Origin: a virus
Taxonomy: Duplodnaviria > Caudoviricetes
DNA: 64,000 nt
IMG/VR virus record: IMGVR_UViG_3300035676_000001
Reading direction: 5' to 3' (one strand)
The number at the start of each line of letters is the position of its first letter. Position 1 is the first letter of the stretch. Both the position numbers and the translations under genes were made by a program. This document shows, one piece after another, positions 1,492 through 31,457 of the stretch. Under the pieces are notes generated by a model. That model was not told the DNA's origin, did no database searches, and saw only the letters and a list, made by a program, of their open reading frames with translations.

Positions 1492-1586
1492 TGGACAGTT
1501 TTAGAAGTGTCACATATAACGGCATTGTTATATGATTATATTATATTTTAGTTTATTATATCTTATGCCAATTCATAAACTGGCAC
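1492..1586 (-). promoter_or_regulatory. Two early-promoter palindromic boxes flanking an AT-rich tract
   Basis: TGGACAGT-N6-AGTGTCAC (1492-1513) and ATGCCAAT-N6-ACTGGCAC (1565-1586); perfect IR CATATAAC-N6-GTTATATG at 1512-1533. Confidence 0.6.
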
Positions 1587-1587
1587 A

Positions 1588-1740
1588 TTACATAAACGGA
1601 TCGAATTCCTTGATGCTAGAATAAACTTCTTCGTCACCTTCGAGTTCCAGTAACTCTTTCCAGTCCATATTCTCTACATCTAGATCATCATAACACATGA
1701 TGTCTAGTGTAACCCGTACCAGGCGTTTCTGTGCTAGCAT
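1588..1740 (-). CDS. 50-aa acidic hypothetical protein
   Basis: Manual translation MLAQKRLVRVTLDIMCYDDLDVENMDWKELLELEGDEEVYSSIKEFDPFM; upstream promoter at 1766-1794. Confidence 0.6.
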   Translation of the reverse strand: MLAQKRLVRVTLDIMCYDDLDVENMDWKELLELEGDEEVYSSIKEFDPFM

Positions 1741-1765
1741 GATTCTCGATGTGTATGTGTACTAG

Positions 1766-1794
1766 ATTATATCATGCGTAATGACGATATGCAA
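1766..1794 (-). promoter_or_regulatory. sigma70-type promoter
   Basis: TTGCAT-17 bp-TATAAT. Confidence 0.7.
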
Positions 1795-1915
1795 GTGCTT
1801 CGAGATCATGTGTATCTCGTGCATAATCCTCGTCGAGATCTAGTGCGTAATATGAGTCCTCGTCGAGATTATAATCATATGAGAGAGTATAGTCGAGATC
1901 GTAGTCGTCGTACAT
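1772..1915 (-). CDS. 47-aa Asp/Tyr-rich peptide
   Basis: MYDDYDLDYTLSYDYNLDEDSYYALDLDEDYARDTHDLEALAYRHYA; internal ATG at 1915 of track ORF; promoter at 1946-1974. Confidence 0.55.
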   Translation of the reverse strand: MYDDYDLDYTLSYDYNLDEDSYYALDLDEDYARDTHDLEALAYRHYA

Positions 1916-2061
1916 GGCTCGTCGAGATTGTGTGATGACTGTATGAGTATAGCACAAATCTCGACGAGATGCAAGTGTGAATCTAGTCGAGATCTTATGA
2001 TAATATATATGTGTTCTCGACGAGATTGTGTTATAACGCTAACATGATATCTCGACTAGAT
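1829..2061. repeat. Array of 8 copies of a 13-bp palindrome, consensus ATCT(C/A)G(T/A)C(G/T)AGAT
   Basis: Copies end at 1839, 1869, 1899, 1928, 1970, 1993, 2026, 2061; further half-sites at 1744-1820. Confidence 0.9.
1946..1974 (-). promoter_or_regulatory. sigma70-type promoter with a palindrome copy in its spacer
   Basis: TTGCAT-17 bp-TATACT; ATCTCGTCGAGAT occupies 1958-1970. Confidence 0.7.
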
Positions 2062-2103
2062 TTTATAAGACTGTGTGGGTCTGTGAAGTTTTGCGCGGGG
2101 TGC

Positions 2104-2132
2104 TTGACTTTTTCGCGTTCTTGTGATAGGCT
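2104..2132 (+). promoter_or_regulatory. Putative sigma70-type promoter pointing away from the array
   Basis: TTGACT-17 bp-TAGGCT. Confidence 0.5.
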
Positions 2133-2281
2133 GCTCGCTAAGCCCACAAGACCTGGAGGGGTTTAACAAGTCTCAGAGGGGTTTAGAAGAATTAAACAAC
2201 ATAACACTATCATTATACAATCTTAATCTAAACACAATCAAATATATACATATAACACACAACTATATTTTTATCATATCT

Positions 2282-3304
2282 ATGGCATACATCTATTCAA
2301 TTACAAACCTTGAAAATCAGAAACTTTACGTCGGAAAAACTACACAACCTAACCCATATGATAGATGGAAACAACATCTACAATTAGCAAGAAGTAAGAA
2401 CAATCTAAATGAAAACAATTCTGCTCATAGTATGCCGATTGTAAGAGCAATTAGTAAGTATGGTGCAGATAAGTTTAAATTCAGAGTATTAGAAGAATGT
2501 GTAGATGATAAAGTTAATGAACGTGAAATCTATTGGATAGAACGATTGAATTCCTGTGGTAAGAATGGATATAATGTTACGTTAGGTGGTGAAGGTATAA
2601 AGAAGCCACGCAAATACTGGGCAAATCATCCCTATTCAAAAGCAGTCAGTTGCTATACATTAGAAGATGAATGGGTAAGAGACTATGATACTGCTGGTGT
2701 TGCTGCTGATAGTTTAGGAAATAAAAAAGGAAGAACTAGTATAGTTGCCTGCATTAAAGGAACAACATTTCAATCATTTGGATATAGATGGTCTTGGAAA
2801 GGTGAAACTCCTAAGATGATAGAAAAGAGAATAAATCGTCGTGGTGTTGTGTATGGTATACAGTTAGCAACTGGACGTAAGAAAATGTGGAAATCTGCTG
2901 CTGATGCTGCTGAAGAAATCGTTGGTAATAGAATTAGAAATTTAACGATTGGTAATTCATTAAACAGCCCTAATCACAATAAATTACAAGCACACGGATG
3001 GTATTTGTTTAGAGATAAGAAAGATGCATTAAAAAATTGGAAACCAGCAGAAAAGAAAGGATTTACAACTGAAAAGGCAAAAGCAGCATCAAATAAATCA
3101 AATGAAAAAAGAAAAAGACCTGTAAAAGGCATAAGCATTCATACAGGTGAAATCGTTGAGTTTAACAGTATAAGTGAGGCATCATTTTTTATCAAAGGTG
3201 AAGGTAATTATAAAGCAACTGCTGGAATTAGTAATAATATCAAACGCATCTCAAATGGTGAAACTTGGTGTTATTCTTTTGGATATAAGTGGTACTACAA
3301 TTAA
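2282..3304 (+). CDS. Free-standing GIY-YIG homing endonuclease with three NUMOD1/IENR1-like repeats
   Basis: YIYSITNLENQKLYVGKT motif; repeats of the type K.V....G.....F.S..EA; likely start MAYIYS at 2282; AT-rich, opposite strand to neighbours. Confidence 0.85.
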   Translation: MAYIYSITNLENQKLYVGKTTQPNPYDRWKQHLQLARSKNNLNENNSAHSMPIVRAISKYGADKFKFRVLEECVDDKVNEREIYWIERLNSCGKNGYNVTLGGEGIKKPRKYWANHPYSKAVSCYTLEDEWVRDYDTAGVAADSLGNKKGRTSIVACIKGTTFQSFGYRWSWKGETPKMIEKRINRRGVVYGIQLATGRKKMWKSAADAAEEIVGNRIRNLTIGNSLNSPNHNKLQAHGWYLFRDKKDALKNWKPAEKKGFTTEKAKAASNKSNEKRKRPVKGISIHTGEIVEFNSISEASFFIKGEGNYKATAGISNNIKRISNGETWCYSFGYKWYYN

Positions 3305-8479: not shown

Positions 8480-8501
8480 GTGCCAGTTTCAGGACTGCCA
8501 C
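8480..8501 (-). promoter_or_regulatory. Early-promoter palindromic box
   Basis: GTGCCAGT-TTCAGG-ACTGCCAC, 30 bp upstream of TATAAT (8444-8449). Confidence 0.75.
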
Positions 8502-9313
8502 ACGGCAATCAGTTCATTTGCCTTCTTCCTGCTAGAACCCTTAGCAGAAATGGTCCTAGTCACTTGAATCGGATAGATTTTAGCATTATTATAAAGTTCT
8601 CTTGCAACAGGAACATCATGATTAGAAATAATGACTGTGATTCCTTTGTTTGCAAGTTGTTCTGCCAAATCTCTCAACTGAATCTGTTGGGCATCAGTAA
8701 ATCCATCAGTAGCATAATCTGTAAAGGATGCAGTCTCCGAAACTGGAATATATGGAGGGTCAAAGTATACAGTATCTCCTGCTTCTAAGTCTTCATAAAG
8801 TGATGAGTCTTCAAAGGATAATGAAGTGAATCGTGTAAGTTGTTTAGTAAGGAAGAACATCCTAAAGTTCATCATCTCTTCCGATGGGCAAGATGGTTTA
8901 TCATACTTACCAAAGGGAACATTGAATTCACCCTTCTTATTATATCGTGACAGTCCATTAAAACAATGACGGTTTAGATAGATAAACAGTCTTGCTCTCT
9001 CTGTAGTGTCTGTTGCCCGATTAAAGTGCCTTCTTAACTCTAAATATGCTTCCTTAGTATTATTTTCTGGAGTAAAGAGTTCCTCACAATACTTGATGAA
9101 GTTATCATCAGCAGGGTCAACCAGATTCTGATAGATTGCTACCAAATCTTTATTCACATCATTCAAAATGTATTGCTCTGCAGGTGTATTAAGAGCAACT
9201 GATAGACTTCCACCAAAGGGCTCACAATAACGCTTTGGGTATCCAATATGGGGAATAAGATGGGGCAGGACCCTATATTTGTTTCCTGCCCACTTTAAAA
9301 AAGGTTTGTTCAT
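8489..9313 (-). CDS. dam: DNA adenine methylase (Dam family)
   Basis: KPFLKWAGNK, EPFGGS, FIYLNRHCFNGL.RYN..G.FNVPFG, YFDPPY. Confidence 0.95.
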   Translation of the reverse strand: MNKPFLKWAGNKYRVLPHLIPHIGYPKRYCEPFGGSLSVALNTPAEQYILNDVNKDLVAIYQNLVDPADDNFIKYCEELFTPENNTKEAYLELRRHFNRATDTTERARLFIYLNRHCFNGLSRYNKKGEFNVPFGKYDKPSCPSEEMMNFRMFFLTKQLTRFTSLSFEDSSLYEDLEAGDTVYFDPPYIPVSETASFTDYATDGFTDAQQIQLRDLAEQLANKGITVIISNHDVPVARELYNNAKIYPIQVTRTISAKGSSRKKANELIAVWQS

Positions 9314-9330
9314 ACTCTTGATTTTAACAT

Positions 9331-9355
9331 AAAAAAAGAGGGTTGACAACCCTCT
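9331..9355 (-). terminator. Rho-independent terminator after cp12
   Basis: AGAGGGTT-GTC-AACCCTCT stem followed by T7 on the minus strand. Confidence 0.8.
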
Positions 9356-10249: not shown

Positions 10250-10810
10250 TCAATTTTCCTTAATCCAAATACCATCATCAGTCATCTCCCAACCTGCAGC
10301 AATTGCTTCCTGATAGTTTAGAGTTTTCTTTTCAACTTTTTTAAGAAGATAAGAACCATCACCTTTATCTACCCATTCAACTTGGTCTCCTTCTTTCAGA
10401 TTTGCTGCTTCTAACAGGTCATCAGGAAAGGATATAAAGTATTCAGTTTCATCAGTATCCGCATCCTTACATTCCTCAACAGGAAGAACCCACCTATTCA
10501 CCTTATCTTTCTTATGTTCTTCAGGATAATAATGTTCTTCCCAGAAATCATCCCAATGCCCTTTACACTCTGGTGATGGGTCATCTTTATCACATTTGAG
10601 AACTGAATTATCTTTTACAGGACGATTACCACTCAGAAGTTCAAGAAGTCCATACGCACGACTAGCACGATCCTTATGATAATAATAATCCTCACGAACT
10701 GCTTCACGAATCGCAGAATAAATTTCGTGCGGTGAAGCATCGCCACTCATCGCATCATGTACCCAATCTCGAAGTTTTTCAAGAGAATATTTCTTATAGT
10801 CAAAGTCCAT
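10250..10810 (-). CDS. Hypothetical protein with C-terminal AbrB/MazE-like domain
   Basis: YFISFPDDLLEAANLKEGDQVEWVDKGDGSYLLKKV. Confidence 0.7.
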   Translation of the reverse strand: MDFDYKKYSLEKLRDWVHDAMSGDASPHEIYSAIREAVREDYYYHKDRASRAYGLLELLSGNRPVKDNSVLKCDKDDPSPECKGHWDDFWEEHYYPEEHKKDKVNRWVLPVEECKDADTDETEYFISFPDDLLEAANLKEGDQVEWVDKGDGSYLLKKVEKKTLNYQEAIAAGWEMTDDGIWIKEN

Positions 10811-18230: not shown

Positions 18231-18464
18231 TCACAGAAACTTCTCAAGATTTGAGGAGCTTTTCTTTTTCTTTGTTTTAATTTGCTTTTGAATGAAGGTT
18301 TTAGCGGATGAGTATGAGTTAGCAGTATGAACCTGCTGCCCGTCGTGAATAATCACAAACTTATTGTTCCCATAAGGGACTGCTGCCCACATCCCATCTT
18401 TGGTCACATAACCAGCAGGGTCTGAAGGTTTAGGATTCAGCAGCCCGTAGTTTGGAATGTTCAC
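18231..18464 (-). CDS. Conserved cyanophage hypothetical protein
   Basis: GYVTKDGMWAAVPYG. Confidence 0.7.
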   Translation of the reverse strand: MNIPNYGLLNPKPSDPAGYVTKDGMWAAVPYGNNKFVIIHDGQQVHTANSYSSAKTFIQKQIKTKKKKSSSNLEKFL

Positions 18465-18642: not shown

Positions 18643-19878
18643 TCAGCGTTTGACCACGCTGATAGCAGGCAAACCCTGCTGGAACACGGTGTCCACCACC
18701 GCCTGCACCTTCCTAGCGGTGCTCACGCCCACTGCAGAGTAGACAGGGATGCAGACCAACCCAAACGACTTGGTGTAGTCTACAAGGCGCCCAGGGGCAA
18801 TCCTGCCGCTCTGGAGACCCTCTGCGTCGTCCTTGTGCAGGCGAATGACCCGCCCGATGGTCTGAGAAATACCAATGTAATCCATCGAACGCATAAACAG
18901 AACTGCCTCCAGACCAGACACATTGATACCTTCAGACAGAATGCTGTGGTGAAGAACAACGAACTTCTTGTCGTCATCCTTGCCCCATGCAGAGAGAGTG
19001 TCGAAGAACACCTCACGATTGACCTTCTGACCATCAATCACGGCACCAGTCTTGGAAGTAATATACATCCAAGAGAAGCCACGGTCTTCCAGTTGCTTAC
19101 AGAAATCAGTCTGAGAAACCAGACTCTGAATCTGCTTGGTTGCCTTAGAGCAAATCAGAACCTTACTCACATCCTGAGCATCGATGGTCTGAATCAGATT
19201 CTCACAGTCAACATCAGCAACAATCTGACCTTTACCCAGCATCTCAAACTGCTGCACCACAACCTTAGGGGGCACAATAAAACCACCCTCTACAAGTTCA
19301 GGAGCAGGGACATTACAAATCACCTGACCATACACTGCACCATCATTCATACCAGGCTTGGAAATAGTAGCAGAATGCTTAGGAGTAGCAGTGAAGAAAT
19401 AGCAGCGGTCAGCAGCAGAAGCGAAGTGCTCCGTAGCAGGGAAAAAGTGACGCTGAACGCTGTTGTGTGCCTCATCAAAGTAAATGGTATCAACCTTAAT
19501 ATCTGCCTGCTGAAGACGCTGCAGGGAGTTGTAGGTAGTGAAAATCAGTTGATGCTTATAAGCACGGCGAGACCAGTTGTGAATCTCAGAAGGTTTGGTC
19601 GTGCTGTAGTGATGAGTCTCACCACTGTGAACGTGCAGAACAGCAGCAGTCGTGATAAACTCAAGAAACTCAGAAGACAGTTGCTCAGCAAGCAGAATGC
19701 GAGGAGCAACAACTACAATAGTCTTAGGAGCATCAGATTGAAACTCACGCAGAGCATCAAAGATAGCGATGTTGGTCTTACCACCGCCAGTAGGAATAAT
19801 CACCTGACCTTTCTGATACTTAACAAGAGCATTCAGAGCGCGTTCTTGGTGAGGTCGGAGTTGAATCACAGGTCTCAT
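18643..19878 (-). CDS. Superfamily 2 (DEAD/DEAH-like, ResIII) helicase
   Basis: PTGGGKT Walker A, YFDEAH motif II, FTATP motif III, ILSEGINV, QTIGRVIR motif VI. Confidence 0.9.
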   Translation of the reverse strand: MRPVIQLRPHQERALNALVKYQKGQVIIPTGGGKTNIAIFDALREFQSDAPKTIVVVAPRILLAEQLSSEFLEFITTAAVLHVHSGETHHYSTTKPSEIHNWSRRAYKHQLIFTTYNSLQRLQQADIKVDTIYFDEAHNSVQRHFFPATEHFASAADRCYFFTATPKHSATISKPGMNDGAVYGQVICNVPAPELVEGGFIVPPKVVVQQFEMLGKGQIVADVDCENLIQTIDAQDVSKVLICSKATKQIQSLVSQTDFCKQLEDRGFSWMYITSKTGAVIDGQKVNREVFFDTLSAWGKDDDKKFVVLHHSILSEGINVSGLEAVLFMRSMDYIGISQTIGRVIRLHKDDAEGLQSGRIAPGRLVDYTKSFGLVCIPVYSAVGVSTARKVQAVVDTVFQQGLPAISVVKR

Positions 19879-31247: not shown

Positions 31248-31457
31248 TTAGATGTATTCTTGACCTTTGATAGCGAGGTCAGCATACTCAATCTGCTCAG
31301 GGTCAAGTTGAGCAGTCACGACTTCCAGGACATTCATAAACTCTTGAACAGTCTCACACTCTACCAGGCGCTCACTGCCTTGGTCACTGAGAAGAAGAAA
31401 ACTGCGGGTGCAAACATCAATCACAATGCCTTGGACGGTCTCTTGTGCGGTGCTCAT
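31248..31457 (-). CDS. Conserved cyanophage hypothetical protein
   Basis: ORF track; promoter 31484-31512 upstream. Confidence 0.7.
   Translation of the reverse strand: MSTAQETVQGIVIDVCTRSFLLLSDQGSERLVECETVQEFMNVLEVVTAQLDPEQIEYADLAIKGQEYI

Follow-up and report, generated by a model that had tools for sequence, protein, structure and literature searches.

What does a run of eight short palindromes do at the promoters of two tiny early genes of a T4-like cyanophage? T4-like cyanophages kill a large share of the picocyanobacteria in the ocean and in lakes, and the timing of their early genes is poorly understood; to our knowledge they lack the MotA/AsiA system of T4, and we know of no replication origin that has been shown experimentally in this group. 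A review gives a predicted single origin in Syn9 only. The locus lies in a 64-kb stretch (hereafter the window, meaning that whole stretch) of a freshwater T4-like cyanophage, and the runs that contain this stretch are all of freshwater or wetland DNA. A first-pass annotation had offered two readings of the palindromes, an operator array and an iteron-type replication origin; the former is the best fit to the anatomy described below, and the latter we now hold to be possible but unlikely. A search of the literature, not extending to Weigele 2007 and Doron 2016, turned up no account of this motif.

A sequence scan located all eight copies at the positions first given. The array is built on the core CTCGWCGAG, extended mostly to ATCTCGWCGAG(AT), and is real and nonrandom: 12 of the 15 one-mismatch matches to TCGWCGAGAT in the 64 kb sit within the 232 bp from 1830 to 2061, whereas shuffles averaged 3.7, with 9 as the highest value. 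The motif is clustered in the window, not evenly spread. Three copies are perfect 13-bp palindromes (1958-1970, 1981-1993, and 2049-2061), three are the 11-mer CTCGTCGAGAT with a perfect 9-bp palindromic core (1829-1839, 1859-1869, and 1918-1928), one is a base short of the 13-bp form (12/13 bases, 2014..2026), and one is degenerate (ATAGTCGAG at 1889..1897, TAGTCGAGAT at 1890-1899); additional half-sites lie at 1744-1749, 1762-1767, 1800-1806, and 1815-1820. The centre-to-centre distances of 30, 30, 29, 42, 23, 33, and 35 bp agree with those noted at first, but the near-integral helical turns that had been read into them are only loosely met in this window taken alone and emerge better across lineages.

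The array reaches into a leftward, minus-strand unit of two small genes. The first, ORF B (1772..1915, a correction of the extent 1772..1957 originally assigned to it), encodes a conserved 47-aa Asp/Tyr-rich acidic protein (MYDDYDLDY...LAYRHYA) known in 84 distinct open versions of 42-68 aa, with a P-SSM2 counterpart annotated as PSSM2_098 and no family match in Pfam or PHROG. A tblastn search of phage records with ORF B returned S-SRM01 only, and because the protein is short and of low complexity this search is unusable as a proxy for the presence of the array. The second gene, ORF A (1588..1740, minus strand), encodes a conserved 50-aa acidic early protein (phrog_12516, E = 3.8e-15) that is positioned after ORF B in about 80 of the 84 lineages and has 8 invariant residues in an alignment of 75 sequences; its AlphaFold2 model (pLDDT 87) had no match in the PDB by Foldseek. 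ORF B is preceded by the predicted promoter PL2 (1946..1974, minus strand; TTGCAT at 1974..1969, a 17-bp spacer, and TGc-TATACT at 1951..1946), whose family consensus is TTGC-ATCTCGtCGAGAT-ttatGc-TAtAAT and which in P-SSM2 reads TTGACA, 17 bp, TATAAT. A second predicted promoter, PL1 (1766..1794, minus strand; TTGCAT at 1794..1789, 17 bp, TATAAT at 1771..1766), overlaps the ORF B stop and last codons, and a 25-mer over it is identical in 14 IMG/VR stretches of otherwise diverged phages. These promoters and the rightward promoter PR described below were called by consensus match, with inferred start positions.

The palindromes are placed with respect to PL2 and to the ORF B start codon. The 13-bp palindrome at 1958..1970 fills the PL2 spacer, as the first-pass annotation had recognized, with its centre at about -25, and the next site (core 1918..1926) lies in the ORF B 5' UTR, its centre 7 nt before the ATG and at about +17 from the inferred PL2 start, so that the core elements of the predicted promoter are overlapped by one palindrome and followed closely by a second. 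The copies at 1981..1993, 2014..2026, and 2049..2061 lie upstream of PL2, the outermost centred about 84 nt upstream of the inferred PR start. The remaining three are within ORF B, where the cores at 1829..1837 and 1859..1867 each encode L-D-E and the degenerate site codes D-L-D-Y. The signal is nonetheless one of DNA, as had been claimed, since copies occur both inside and outside the small gene and are not conserved solely as Leu-Asp-Glu codons. At the in-gene sites the choice among synonymous codons preserves the DNA motif: where ORF B reads L-D-(E/Y/D) it uses CTC in 88%, GAC in 88%, and GAG in 92% of cases, against CTT in 52%, GAT in 69%, and GAA in 52% for the same residues elsewhere in the gene.

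Judged by sequence comparison, the array is part of a conserved module of about 700 bp in T4-like cyanophages. The conservation expected at the syntenic locus of related cyanophages was found: the module occurs in P-SSM2/P-SSM5, S-T4, and S-SRM01, is reduced in S-SKS1, and is represented by arrays of 5-10 sites in more than 100 IMG/VR contigs at least (∼40% G+C). Core sites are located in arrays in 5 of 5 cases in S-T4, 4 of 6 in P-SSM2 (with sites at record positions 66031-66168), and 13 of 15, over three arrays, in S-SRM01. Among the genomes checked, Syn9, S-PM2, S-RSM4, S-CAM7, ACG-2014f, and Sf-CH8 have no array; these six are Kyanoviridae or related phages. Over 84 lineages, which are related so that counts over them overstate independence, site centres recur at -7, -49, -81, -113, -146, +55, and +85, counted from the start codon of ORF B. 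The layout comprises one spacer site (the -49 class), one site just before the start codon, 3-4 further sites upstream at steps of about 32 bp, and 2-3 inside ORF B, to which the window contributes its cores at 1859..1867 (class +55) and 1829..1837 (class +85). The noncoding sites are kept in place in 44-81 of the 84 lineages, the 5' UTR class in 81 and the PL2-spacer site in 72. Spacings peak at 21-24, 31-33, 39-43, and 59-67 bp, with a mean phase of 0.02 turn at 10.5 bp per turn over these nonindependent lineages. Some relatives carry secondary arrays at two other conserved intergenic gaps or early promoters of the same early cluster, and there the geometry is repeated, with one site falling between the -10 box and the early dyad and a second immediately preceding the ATG, overlapping the promoter core as at PL2.

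We put at about an even chance the proposal that the palindromes are operators of a phage-encoded, probably dimeric, sequence-specific repressor made after infection begins. This is the best fit to the locus because sites lie in a promoter spacer and a 5' UTR, because the same geometry recurs at other early promoters of relatives, and because the constraint on the DNA holds even inside a gene; the sites, their constant positions, and the constraint on their DNA are observed, and from them we infer protein binding, repression rather than activation, cooperativity, and a phage origin of the binder. We hypothesize that at injection the host RNA polymerase would fire the near-consensus PL2 together with PL1, yielding ORF B and ORF A, the two small acidic products of the early unit. 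As the regulator accumulated, it would occupy the PL2-spacer site and the site at about +17, both of which would lie under the polymerase footprint, and could then spread cooperatively, both upstream and within ORF B, to sites that share one face of the DNA at distances of 2, 3, 4, or 6 helical turns. The resulting nucleoprotein block of 230-330 bp would shut the early unit off, and in relatives with extra arrays the regulator would shut two more early promoters likewise. A simple symmetric dimer may be too simple a picture of the binder because the site departs from full symmetry (∼92% of sites retain the 5' AT flank and ∼40-55% the 3' flank, and the centre is A on the ORF B strand in 75%) and because S-SKS1 has mainly single half-sites.

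Several known switches resemble this arrangement in part. In the phi29 switch, p4 and p6 act at promoters A2c, A2b, and A3 in a region of comparable extent (200-350 bp) with divergent promoters and several inverted-repeat sites, on which a phage protein builds a multimeric complex over the early promoters, much as we propose here. The cyanophage locus differs in having 7-10 copies of an 11- to 13-bp palindrome, some of them inside a gene, and in that no p4- or p6-like protein was found; moreover, the late promoter of phi29 is activator dependent, whereas PR looks like an ordinary sigma-70 promoter. P22 Arc at Pant and lambda CI/Cro at OR/OL share with the array a dyad site between -35 and -10 and nearby further sites that could support cooperative binding, but the array is far longer, runs on into coding sequence, and has counterparts at other promoters, and it belongs to a lytic T4-like phage without a lysogeny module in which the two downstream genes encode acidic proteins that do not resemble repressors. 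Phased short repeats that flank and overlap a promoter are also found in ParR/parC and in the omega heptads, where a small dimeric protein represses cooperatively; neither a partition ATPase nor a ribbon-helix-helix protein was found here, and a lytic phage has no obvious need of partition. The promoter-early stem-loop (PeSL) cassettes of T4-type phages that Arbiol and colleagues reportedly described in 2010 likewise punctuate small early gene clusters with repeated promoter-linked elements; a PeSL, however, is a promoter plus hairpin, one per gene, while the present palindromes are too short for a stable hairpin and form stacks of 7-10 at between one and three promoters.

The protein that would bind these operators was sought by co-occurrence profiling over 11 genomes, which did not identify it and gave three weak candidates: a basic 77-aa protein (encoded at 18231..18464 of the window), an AbrB/MazE-like 56-aa protein, and DUF7294. 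The occurrence of DUF7294 matches that of the arrays without exception (5/5 versus 0/6), but its predicted model is unlike a DNA binder and its fold matches are weak and not to DNA-binding proteins. The AbrB/MazE-like protein, encoded in the same gene cluster, is weakened as a candidate by its presence in the array-free S-CAM7, ACG-2014f, and Sf-CH8. ORF A and ORF B are both strongly acidic, and neither the Pfam and PHROG searches nor the ORF A model gave a DNA-binding fold. ORF A was considered as an AbrB- or RHH-type repressor and rejected: profile comparison with the AbrB-like family gave a probability of 1%, Pfam returned weak Tudor-like matches only, and Foldseek, as noted, found nothing in the PDB. 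Identifying a binder would reveal either a new regulator of early transcription in phages or a replication initiator. The module offers a conserved and easily tested handle on early-gene timing, with a short defined site that recurs 7-10 times at the strongest early promoters in the model phage P-SSM2 and in numerous uncultured relatives and, at the same locus, a predicted conserved noncoding divergent transcript and two tiny conserved acidic proteins.

That divergent transcript brings the origin proposal into play. Upstream of PR is a G-rich element (2066..2103, plus strand; ataagac...tgtgtgggtctg) conserved in nearly all lineages displayed. PR itself (2104..2132, plus strand; TTGACT, 17 bp, TGa-TAGGCT), divergent from PL2, bears out the plus-strand promoter of the first-pass annotation; 70 of 72 lineages have TTGAC[AT] at the corresponding position, and the consensus is strongly conserved. 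Two 20-bp tandem repeat units with 80% identity follow (2146..2185, plus strand), and then a 94-nt AT-rich run without G (2190..2283, plus strand), which corresponds to the AT-rich noncoding tract earlier placed at about 2190-2280 and is unmatched in the window, where the second-longest G-free run measures 50 nt. It reaches the start of a gene for a free-standing GIY-YIG homing endonuclease (2282..3304, plus strand; PF01541, E = 2.5e-13, with matches also to PHROGs of homing endonucleases). The module carries this gene as an optional passenger: a GIY-YIG ORF follows PR in 18 of 70 lineages, and the gene is absent in S-T4 and P-SSM2. The stretch downstream of PR contains a 9-mer at least 3 times in about half of the lineages and five 22-bp units in S-SKS1, and the equivalent of the AT-rich tract in relatives averages 70% A+T and 13% G, so that a promoter followed by an AT-rich stretch, an arrangement of the origin type, is present at the locus.

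On this proposal, which we consider possible though doubtful, the locus would be the replication origin, or one of several, of this T4-like cyanophage group. The palindromes would be iteron-like sites for an initiator or architectural protein, a primer or R-loop transcript from PR would enter the tandem repeats and the easily melted AT-rich tract, host DnaA would be added in some lineages, and the array might be operator and origin element together, as in iteron plasmids. Consistent with this, PR runs against the flow of all neighbouring genes, with no gene for it to transcribe in S-T4, P-SSM2, and several contigs, and the repeats and base composition downstream of it also fit. In 16 of 80 lineages there are, in addition, two or three copies of TTTTCCACA or TTATCCACA, words matching TTWTCCACA, on one strand at 100-300 nt from the PR -35 box and with a spacing of 11-12 or 20-21 bp; 38 of the 57 such DnaA-box-like words in 805 kb of loci fall in the 38 kb downstream of PR, and the only such cluster in the 208-kb S-SKS1 genome adjoins its module copy. 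The window has no such word near PR, however, and the exact TTTTCCACA, a candidate for the local DnaA box, shows no clear cluster in two host-family genomes, where we had considered it as the oriC word. Lineages with boxes (15) and with ATTCTCA/TGAGAAT (39) are mutually exclusive, none having both, and this could equally mark alternative ways of stopping the PR transcript. There is no GC-skew switch at 2 kb, one of the signs looked for in an origin, and the genes on both sides run one way. The single cluster per genome that had been anticipated is contradicted by S-SRM01 and several contigs, which have two or three arrays within 6 kb (three in S-SRM01), the extra ones without a divergent promoter or AT-rich tract; and the six array-free genomes carry the same replication genes.

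Comparison with known origins points both ways. The order of parts, with boxes in some lineages, an AT-rich tract, repeats, and inverted repeats over the promoter of the neighbouring small genes, is similar to that of basic replicons such as pSC101 or P1 and of F, R6K, and the lambda origin, whose iterons lie inside gene O much as some sites here lie within coding sequence. But a search for a dedicated initiator (Rep, O, or RepEB) among the neighbouring ORFs gave no Rep-like family, the sites are palindromes rather than direct repeats of 17-22 bp, several arrays per genome can occur, and DnaA-box-like words are missing from the window. T4 oriE, which had been invoked as a model, shares an early promoter, evenly spaced short repeats, transcription of both strands, a nearby GIY-YIG gene (segC in T4), and two tiny early ORFs (repEA and repEB of 45 and 50 aa, here 47 and 50 aa). 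Against this, ORF A and ORF B are unrelated to RepEA and RepEB (bit scores ≤0.6), the genomic place differs, and the palindromes are unlike the oriE iterons, 12-nt direct repeats that lie within the coding sequence of gene 5 and whose role is itself unproven.

A related suggestion, which we rate as fairly unlikely, is that the module combines switch and origin, the phased array being an assembly platform for a cyanophage-specific initiator or regulator that would silence the flanking early promoters and also license PR to produce a primer or R-loop transcript in the repeats and AT-rich tract beside it. Interchangeable accessory cassettes would assist this protein, DnaA boxes in some lineages and ATTCTCA/TGAGAAT repeats in others. 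If true, T4-like cyanophages would have their first defined replication origin.

Early promoters must work ahead of any phage protein, and it could be that the sites bind a host protein instead, as an enhancer-like platform for early transcription or as a decoy titrating a host factor as the genome multiplies. The sites lie upstream of both divergent promoters, and the co-occurrence search over 11 genomes found no phage binder. We judge this improbable: centres at about -25 and +17 are places for a repressor and not for an activator, and the same hosts (e.g., WH7803) are infected by phages with and without arrays. In a search for a host regulon, 81 genomes from the picocyanobacterial family to which a Synechococcus MAG belongs contained the 13-mer 25 times versus 30 for a control word, never clustered. 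Half-site variants, furthermore, change in concert within phage lineages: three sites switched together from CGAGAT to CTAGAT between two close lineages, and the share of CTAG-type half-sites varies among lineages beyond a binomial model. In a separate two-site scan of bacteria and archaea, the matches listed were in high-G+C genomes, with the word as ordinary L-D-E coding sequence.

The array might also be a recombination or homing hot spot, serving as the conserved target or landing pad for homing endonucleases of the free-standing type, or else a site for packaging or partition. The GIY-YIG gene of 18 of the 70 lineages, an HNH gene adjoining the third array of S-SRM01, and the position of the S-T4 array 2.7 kb from the end of its GenBank record would fit this. 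Yet the majority of lineages have the array without an endonuclease gene, the window has the gene and intact sites together, the positions are fixed to promoters and start codons, which is not required of a cleavage or packaging site, and the ends of the S-T4 record are a 9,513-bp duplicated overlap and not mapped termini. T4-like phages package by headful, which also counts against a packaging site, and we consider all of this very improbable. That the repeats act in RNA or are a by-product of a repetitive acidic ORF B, with no function as DNA, is scarcely credible, for although three sites can be read in frame as L-D-E or L-D-Y and most share one orientation on the transcribed strand, 4-5 sites per lineage are noncoding yet keep their positions, including one within a promoter spacer, ahead of where the transcript would begin, the in-frame codons follow the DNA motif and not the usage of the gene, the ORF B-side and PR-side transcripts fold no better than shuffles (z-scores of 0.03 and 0.01), and an Rfam search gave no match at E up to 1.

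Returning to the operator proposal, the first-pass annotation had added that binding might be modulated by methylation. Its five GATC sites in 1683-1994 are there (at 1683, 1804, 1837, 1897, and 1991, the densest stretch of the window), as is a Dam gene (8489..9349; Pfam PF02086, E = 1e-61). The base preceding the conserved ATCT is, however, G in only ∼30% of sites, and GATC is not in the consensus of any of the five noncoding site classes in the family comparison; GATC is not part of the conserved site, and the link to Dam methylation is therefore unsupported. The local GATC excess is real and follows from chance flanks and from GAT-CTC codons, in which the Asp codon GAT precedes an in-gene site.

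The segment 1740-2285 separates a cluster of tiny leftward genes from a GIY-YIG endonuclease gene that runs rightward, and its repeated word is the 9-bp palindrome CTCGWCGAG, mostly lengthened to ATCTCGWCGAG(AT). Three of the eight copies are perfect 13-bp palindromes, one lacks a single base, three are 11-mers, and one is degenerate. Allowing up to one mismatch, TCGWCGAGAT has 15 matches in the 64-kb window, 12 of which fall in 1830-2061 (shuffled-sequence control: mean, 3.7; maximum, 9). On re-check of the window, the site coordinates and spacings of the first-pass annotation were correct, and both promoters, the five GATC sites, the Dam gene, and the AT-rich tract are all present as it described them; its small minus-strand ORF, however, opens at ATG 1915 and not at 1957. 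A description of the palindrome motif was not found in the searchable literature.

The array is part of a module shared across the family, and its geometry is fixed. Scanning for three consecutive palindromes returned at least 120 loci, more than 100 of them contigs of ∼40% G+C with 5 to 10 sites and the signature of ORF B, the small ORF that opens at 1915. A 25-mer spanning the end of ORF B and the leftward promoter PL1 (1766-1794, minus strand; TTGCAT, 17 bp, TATAAT) is identical in 14 IMG/VR stretches. The first-pass annotation proposed a check for conservation at related cyanophage loci, and the module is present in those contigs and in P-SSM2, S-T4, and S-SRM01. Whole-record scans found one array each in S-T4, P-SSM2, and P-SSM5 but three in S-SRM01, in addition to one reduced copy in S-SKS1, and none in Syn9, S-PM2, S-RSM4, S-CAM7, ACG-2014f, or Sf-CH8.

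The array is accompanied by two tiny, acidic early proteins, both of them conserved. ORF B (1772-1915, minus strand; 47 aa, Asp/Tyr-rich) occurs in 84 distinct versions of 42 to 68 residues, every one open, with the N terminus MYDD(Y/W)D in all 84 and the C terminus LAY(R/K)HYA in nearly all. It is annotated in P-SSM2 as PSSM2_098 and lacks annotation in S-T4 and S-SRM01. ORF A (1588-1740, minus strand; 50 aa, phrog_12516) follows it in ∼80 of 84 lineages, and a dyad TGCCA...TGGCA(C) lies directly after ORF A in the window (1565-1590) and in relatives, recurring within the relatives' secondary arrays; it is the early-promoter dyad. Three window sites lie inside ORF B, where they are translated as L-D-E or L-D-Y. 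Across the family, the codons at these motifs are CTC (88%), GAC (88%), and GAG (92%), whereas CTT, GAT, and GAA are preferred for the same residues elsewhere in ORF B. Because codon choice within the motifs differs from that in the rest of the gene, the DNA word is under selection beyond the protein; conservation is not confined to the reading frame, and the earlier claim of a DNA-level signal stands. ORF B is a real gene, yet the sites inside it are DNA signals too. The proposed modulation by methylation is not supported: the five GATC sites of the window are real and locally enriched, but across the family GATC is not part of the noncoding sites and comes from GAT-CTC codons plus chance flanks.

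Measured from the start codon of ORF B, site centers at -7, -49, -81, -113, -146, +55, and +85 recur lineage after lineage. The -49 site occupies the spacer of the leftward promoter PL2 (1946-1974, minus strand), for which the family consensus is TTGC-ATCTCGtCGAGAT-ttatGc-TAtAAT and which in P-SSM2 is a perfect TTGACA, 17 bp, TATAAT. If transcription starts ∼7 nt beyond the -10 box, the centers of the nearest two sites fall at ∼-25 and ∼+17 of the predicted start, both under the putative polymerase footprint. Spacings among lineages peak at 31 to 33, 39 to 43, 21 to 24, and 59 to 67 bp, corresponding to 3, 4, 2, and 6 helical turns, with a mean phase of 0.02 turn at 10.5 bp per turn among lineages that are not independent; the window's own spacings are less regular. 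S-SRM01 and several contigs carry extra arrays of 3 to 4 sites at two further conserved gaps between genes of the same codirectional early cluster; these arrays lack a divergent promoter and an AT-rich tract. One of these has a site between an early-promoter dyad (TGTGCCA...TGGCACA) and a -10-like box and another immediately ahead of the ATG, so that its -10 box is sandwiched by sites as at PL2. The secondary arrays argue for regulation. We give roughly even chances to the palindromes being the operator array of a probably phage-encoded candidate regulator of early promoters.

Between two close lineages, CGAGAT changes to CTAGAT at three sites together, and the share of the CTAGAT variant is overdispersed among lineages, a pattern that fits a coevolving phage protein. 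A search among the phage's proteins did not single out the binder. ORF A and ORF B are strongly acidic; the ORF A model has a confident fold (pLDDT 87) with no match among solved structures and is unrelated to the AbrB-like family. At a guess, ORF B, judged by its composition, mimics DNA or binds host proteins. A 56-residue acidic AbrB/MazE-like family (alignment A2; PF04014 in 13 of 27 members) is encoded 3 to 9 kb downstream of ORF B, syntenic with the module, in every locus long enough, including that of the window's own phage (L009:6151-6318, ∼3.5 kb to the left of the window's first base). It was found in 31 loci, and three phages that have no array encode it as well. When S-SRM01 ORFs were profiled against four sources with arrays and six genomes without, just two real genes remained, a structural protein and a DUF7294 protein (window 31248-31457, minus strand; 69 residues). 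The latter is present in 5/5 array-bearing sources tested and 0/6 array-less genomes and is very highly conserved (76 to 96% identity among at least 120 homologues, for the matches listed); its model shows no likeness to DNA binders, and the fold is not informative. Separately, a 186-aa protein (window 10250-10810, minus strand) carries a MazE/AbrB-type domain at its C terminus (PF04014, E = 3.5e-5); P-SSM2 and S-SRM01 encode homologues.

A replication origin, alone or combined with an operator role, is unlikely but draws on the rightward side of the module. The predicted promoter PR (2104-2132, plus strand) is kept in 70 of 72 lineages, and in S-T4, P-SSM2, and others it points at oncoming genes and has no gene of its own to express. 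Downstream of it come tandem repeats (two units of 20 bp in the window, five of 22 bp in S-SKS1) and a stretch averaging 70% A+T and 13% G among lineages; the window's tract is a run of 94 nt lacking any G, the longest such run in the window. TTATCCACA is the classical DnaA box, and TTTTCCACA is presumably a cyanobacterial variant of it (the exact word showed no clear cluster in two host-family genomes). Two or three copies of either word, on one strand and spaced 11 to 12 or 20 to 21 bp apart, occur downstream of PR in 16 of 80 lineages, clustered 100 to 300 nt from the PR -35 box (e.g., L004, L008, L033, L062, and L130 among the loci compared), and 38 of the 57 such words in 805 kb of loci fall in the 38 kb downstream of PR; none occurs in window 2140-2470. 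Among 74 lineages with enough sequence downstream of PR, 15 have DnaA-box-like words, 39 have ATTCTCA/TGAGAAT inverted repeats, none has both, and 20, including the window, have neither. These elements resemble an origin, or else alternative devices for ending the PR transcript. Several points speak against the palindromes themselves serving as an origin: some genomes have several arrays, the GC-skew check found no skew switch, many relatives with the same replication genes are array-less, no initiator gene lies nearby, and T4 RepEA/RepEB are unrelated to ORF A/ORF B. The iterons of T4 oriE are direct repeats, and their role is itself not proven.

A platform for a host factor seems improbable: the 13-mer shows no enrichment across 81 genomes from the picocyanobacterial family to which a Synechococcus MAG belongs (25 occurrences versus 30 for a control word) and is never clustered there, which makes a host regulon with this operator unlikely. 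Homing or packaging sites and RNA or coding by-products together merit just as little credence, and a similarly slight weight is left for readings beyond those named.

Homing endonuclease genes recur beside the arrays: 18 of 70 lineages have a GIY-YIG gene downstream of PR (window 2282-3304), and an HNH gene adjoins the third S-SRM01 array (S-SRM01 record 91021-91458). S-SKS1, a phage outside the Kyanoviridae, has the whole module in reduced form (NC_020851, ∼150680-151460; L210 3440-4240). Both ORF A and ORF B have homologues there, the spacer of a consensus promoter holds a CGAGAT half-site, and a single complete palindrome sits ahead of the ATG; ∼10 ACGAGAT half-sites, a PR-like promoter, the five 22-bp tandem repeats, and three DnaA-box-like words make up the rest. 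In S-PM2 (NC_006820, ∼19150-19600), three TTTTCCACA boxes come after a PR-like promoter (TTGACA, 17 bp, TAAGCC), and a dense AAATCTCA/TGAGATTT repeat array lies on the promoter's opposite side; S-PM2 may carry an analogous module on a different word. The S-T4 array and other features in the record-end stretch appear twice because the ends of that record (MH412654, 1-9513 and 171570-181082) duplicate each other over 9,513 bp, with 9,511 bases identical. Runs with window DNA come from wetland, lake, pond, and other freshwater metagenomes (15 studies), and since all are freshwater or wetland, the phage is a freshwater relative of S-SRM01 and not a marine isolate.
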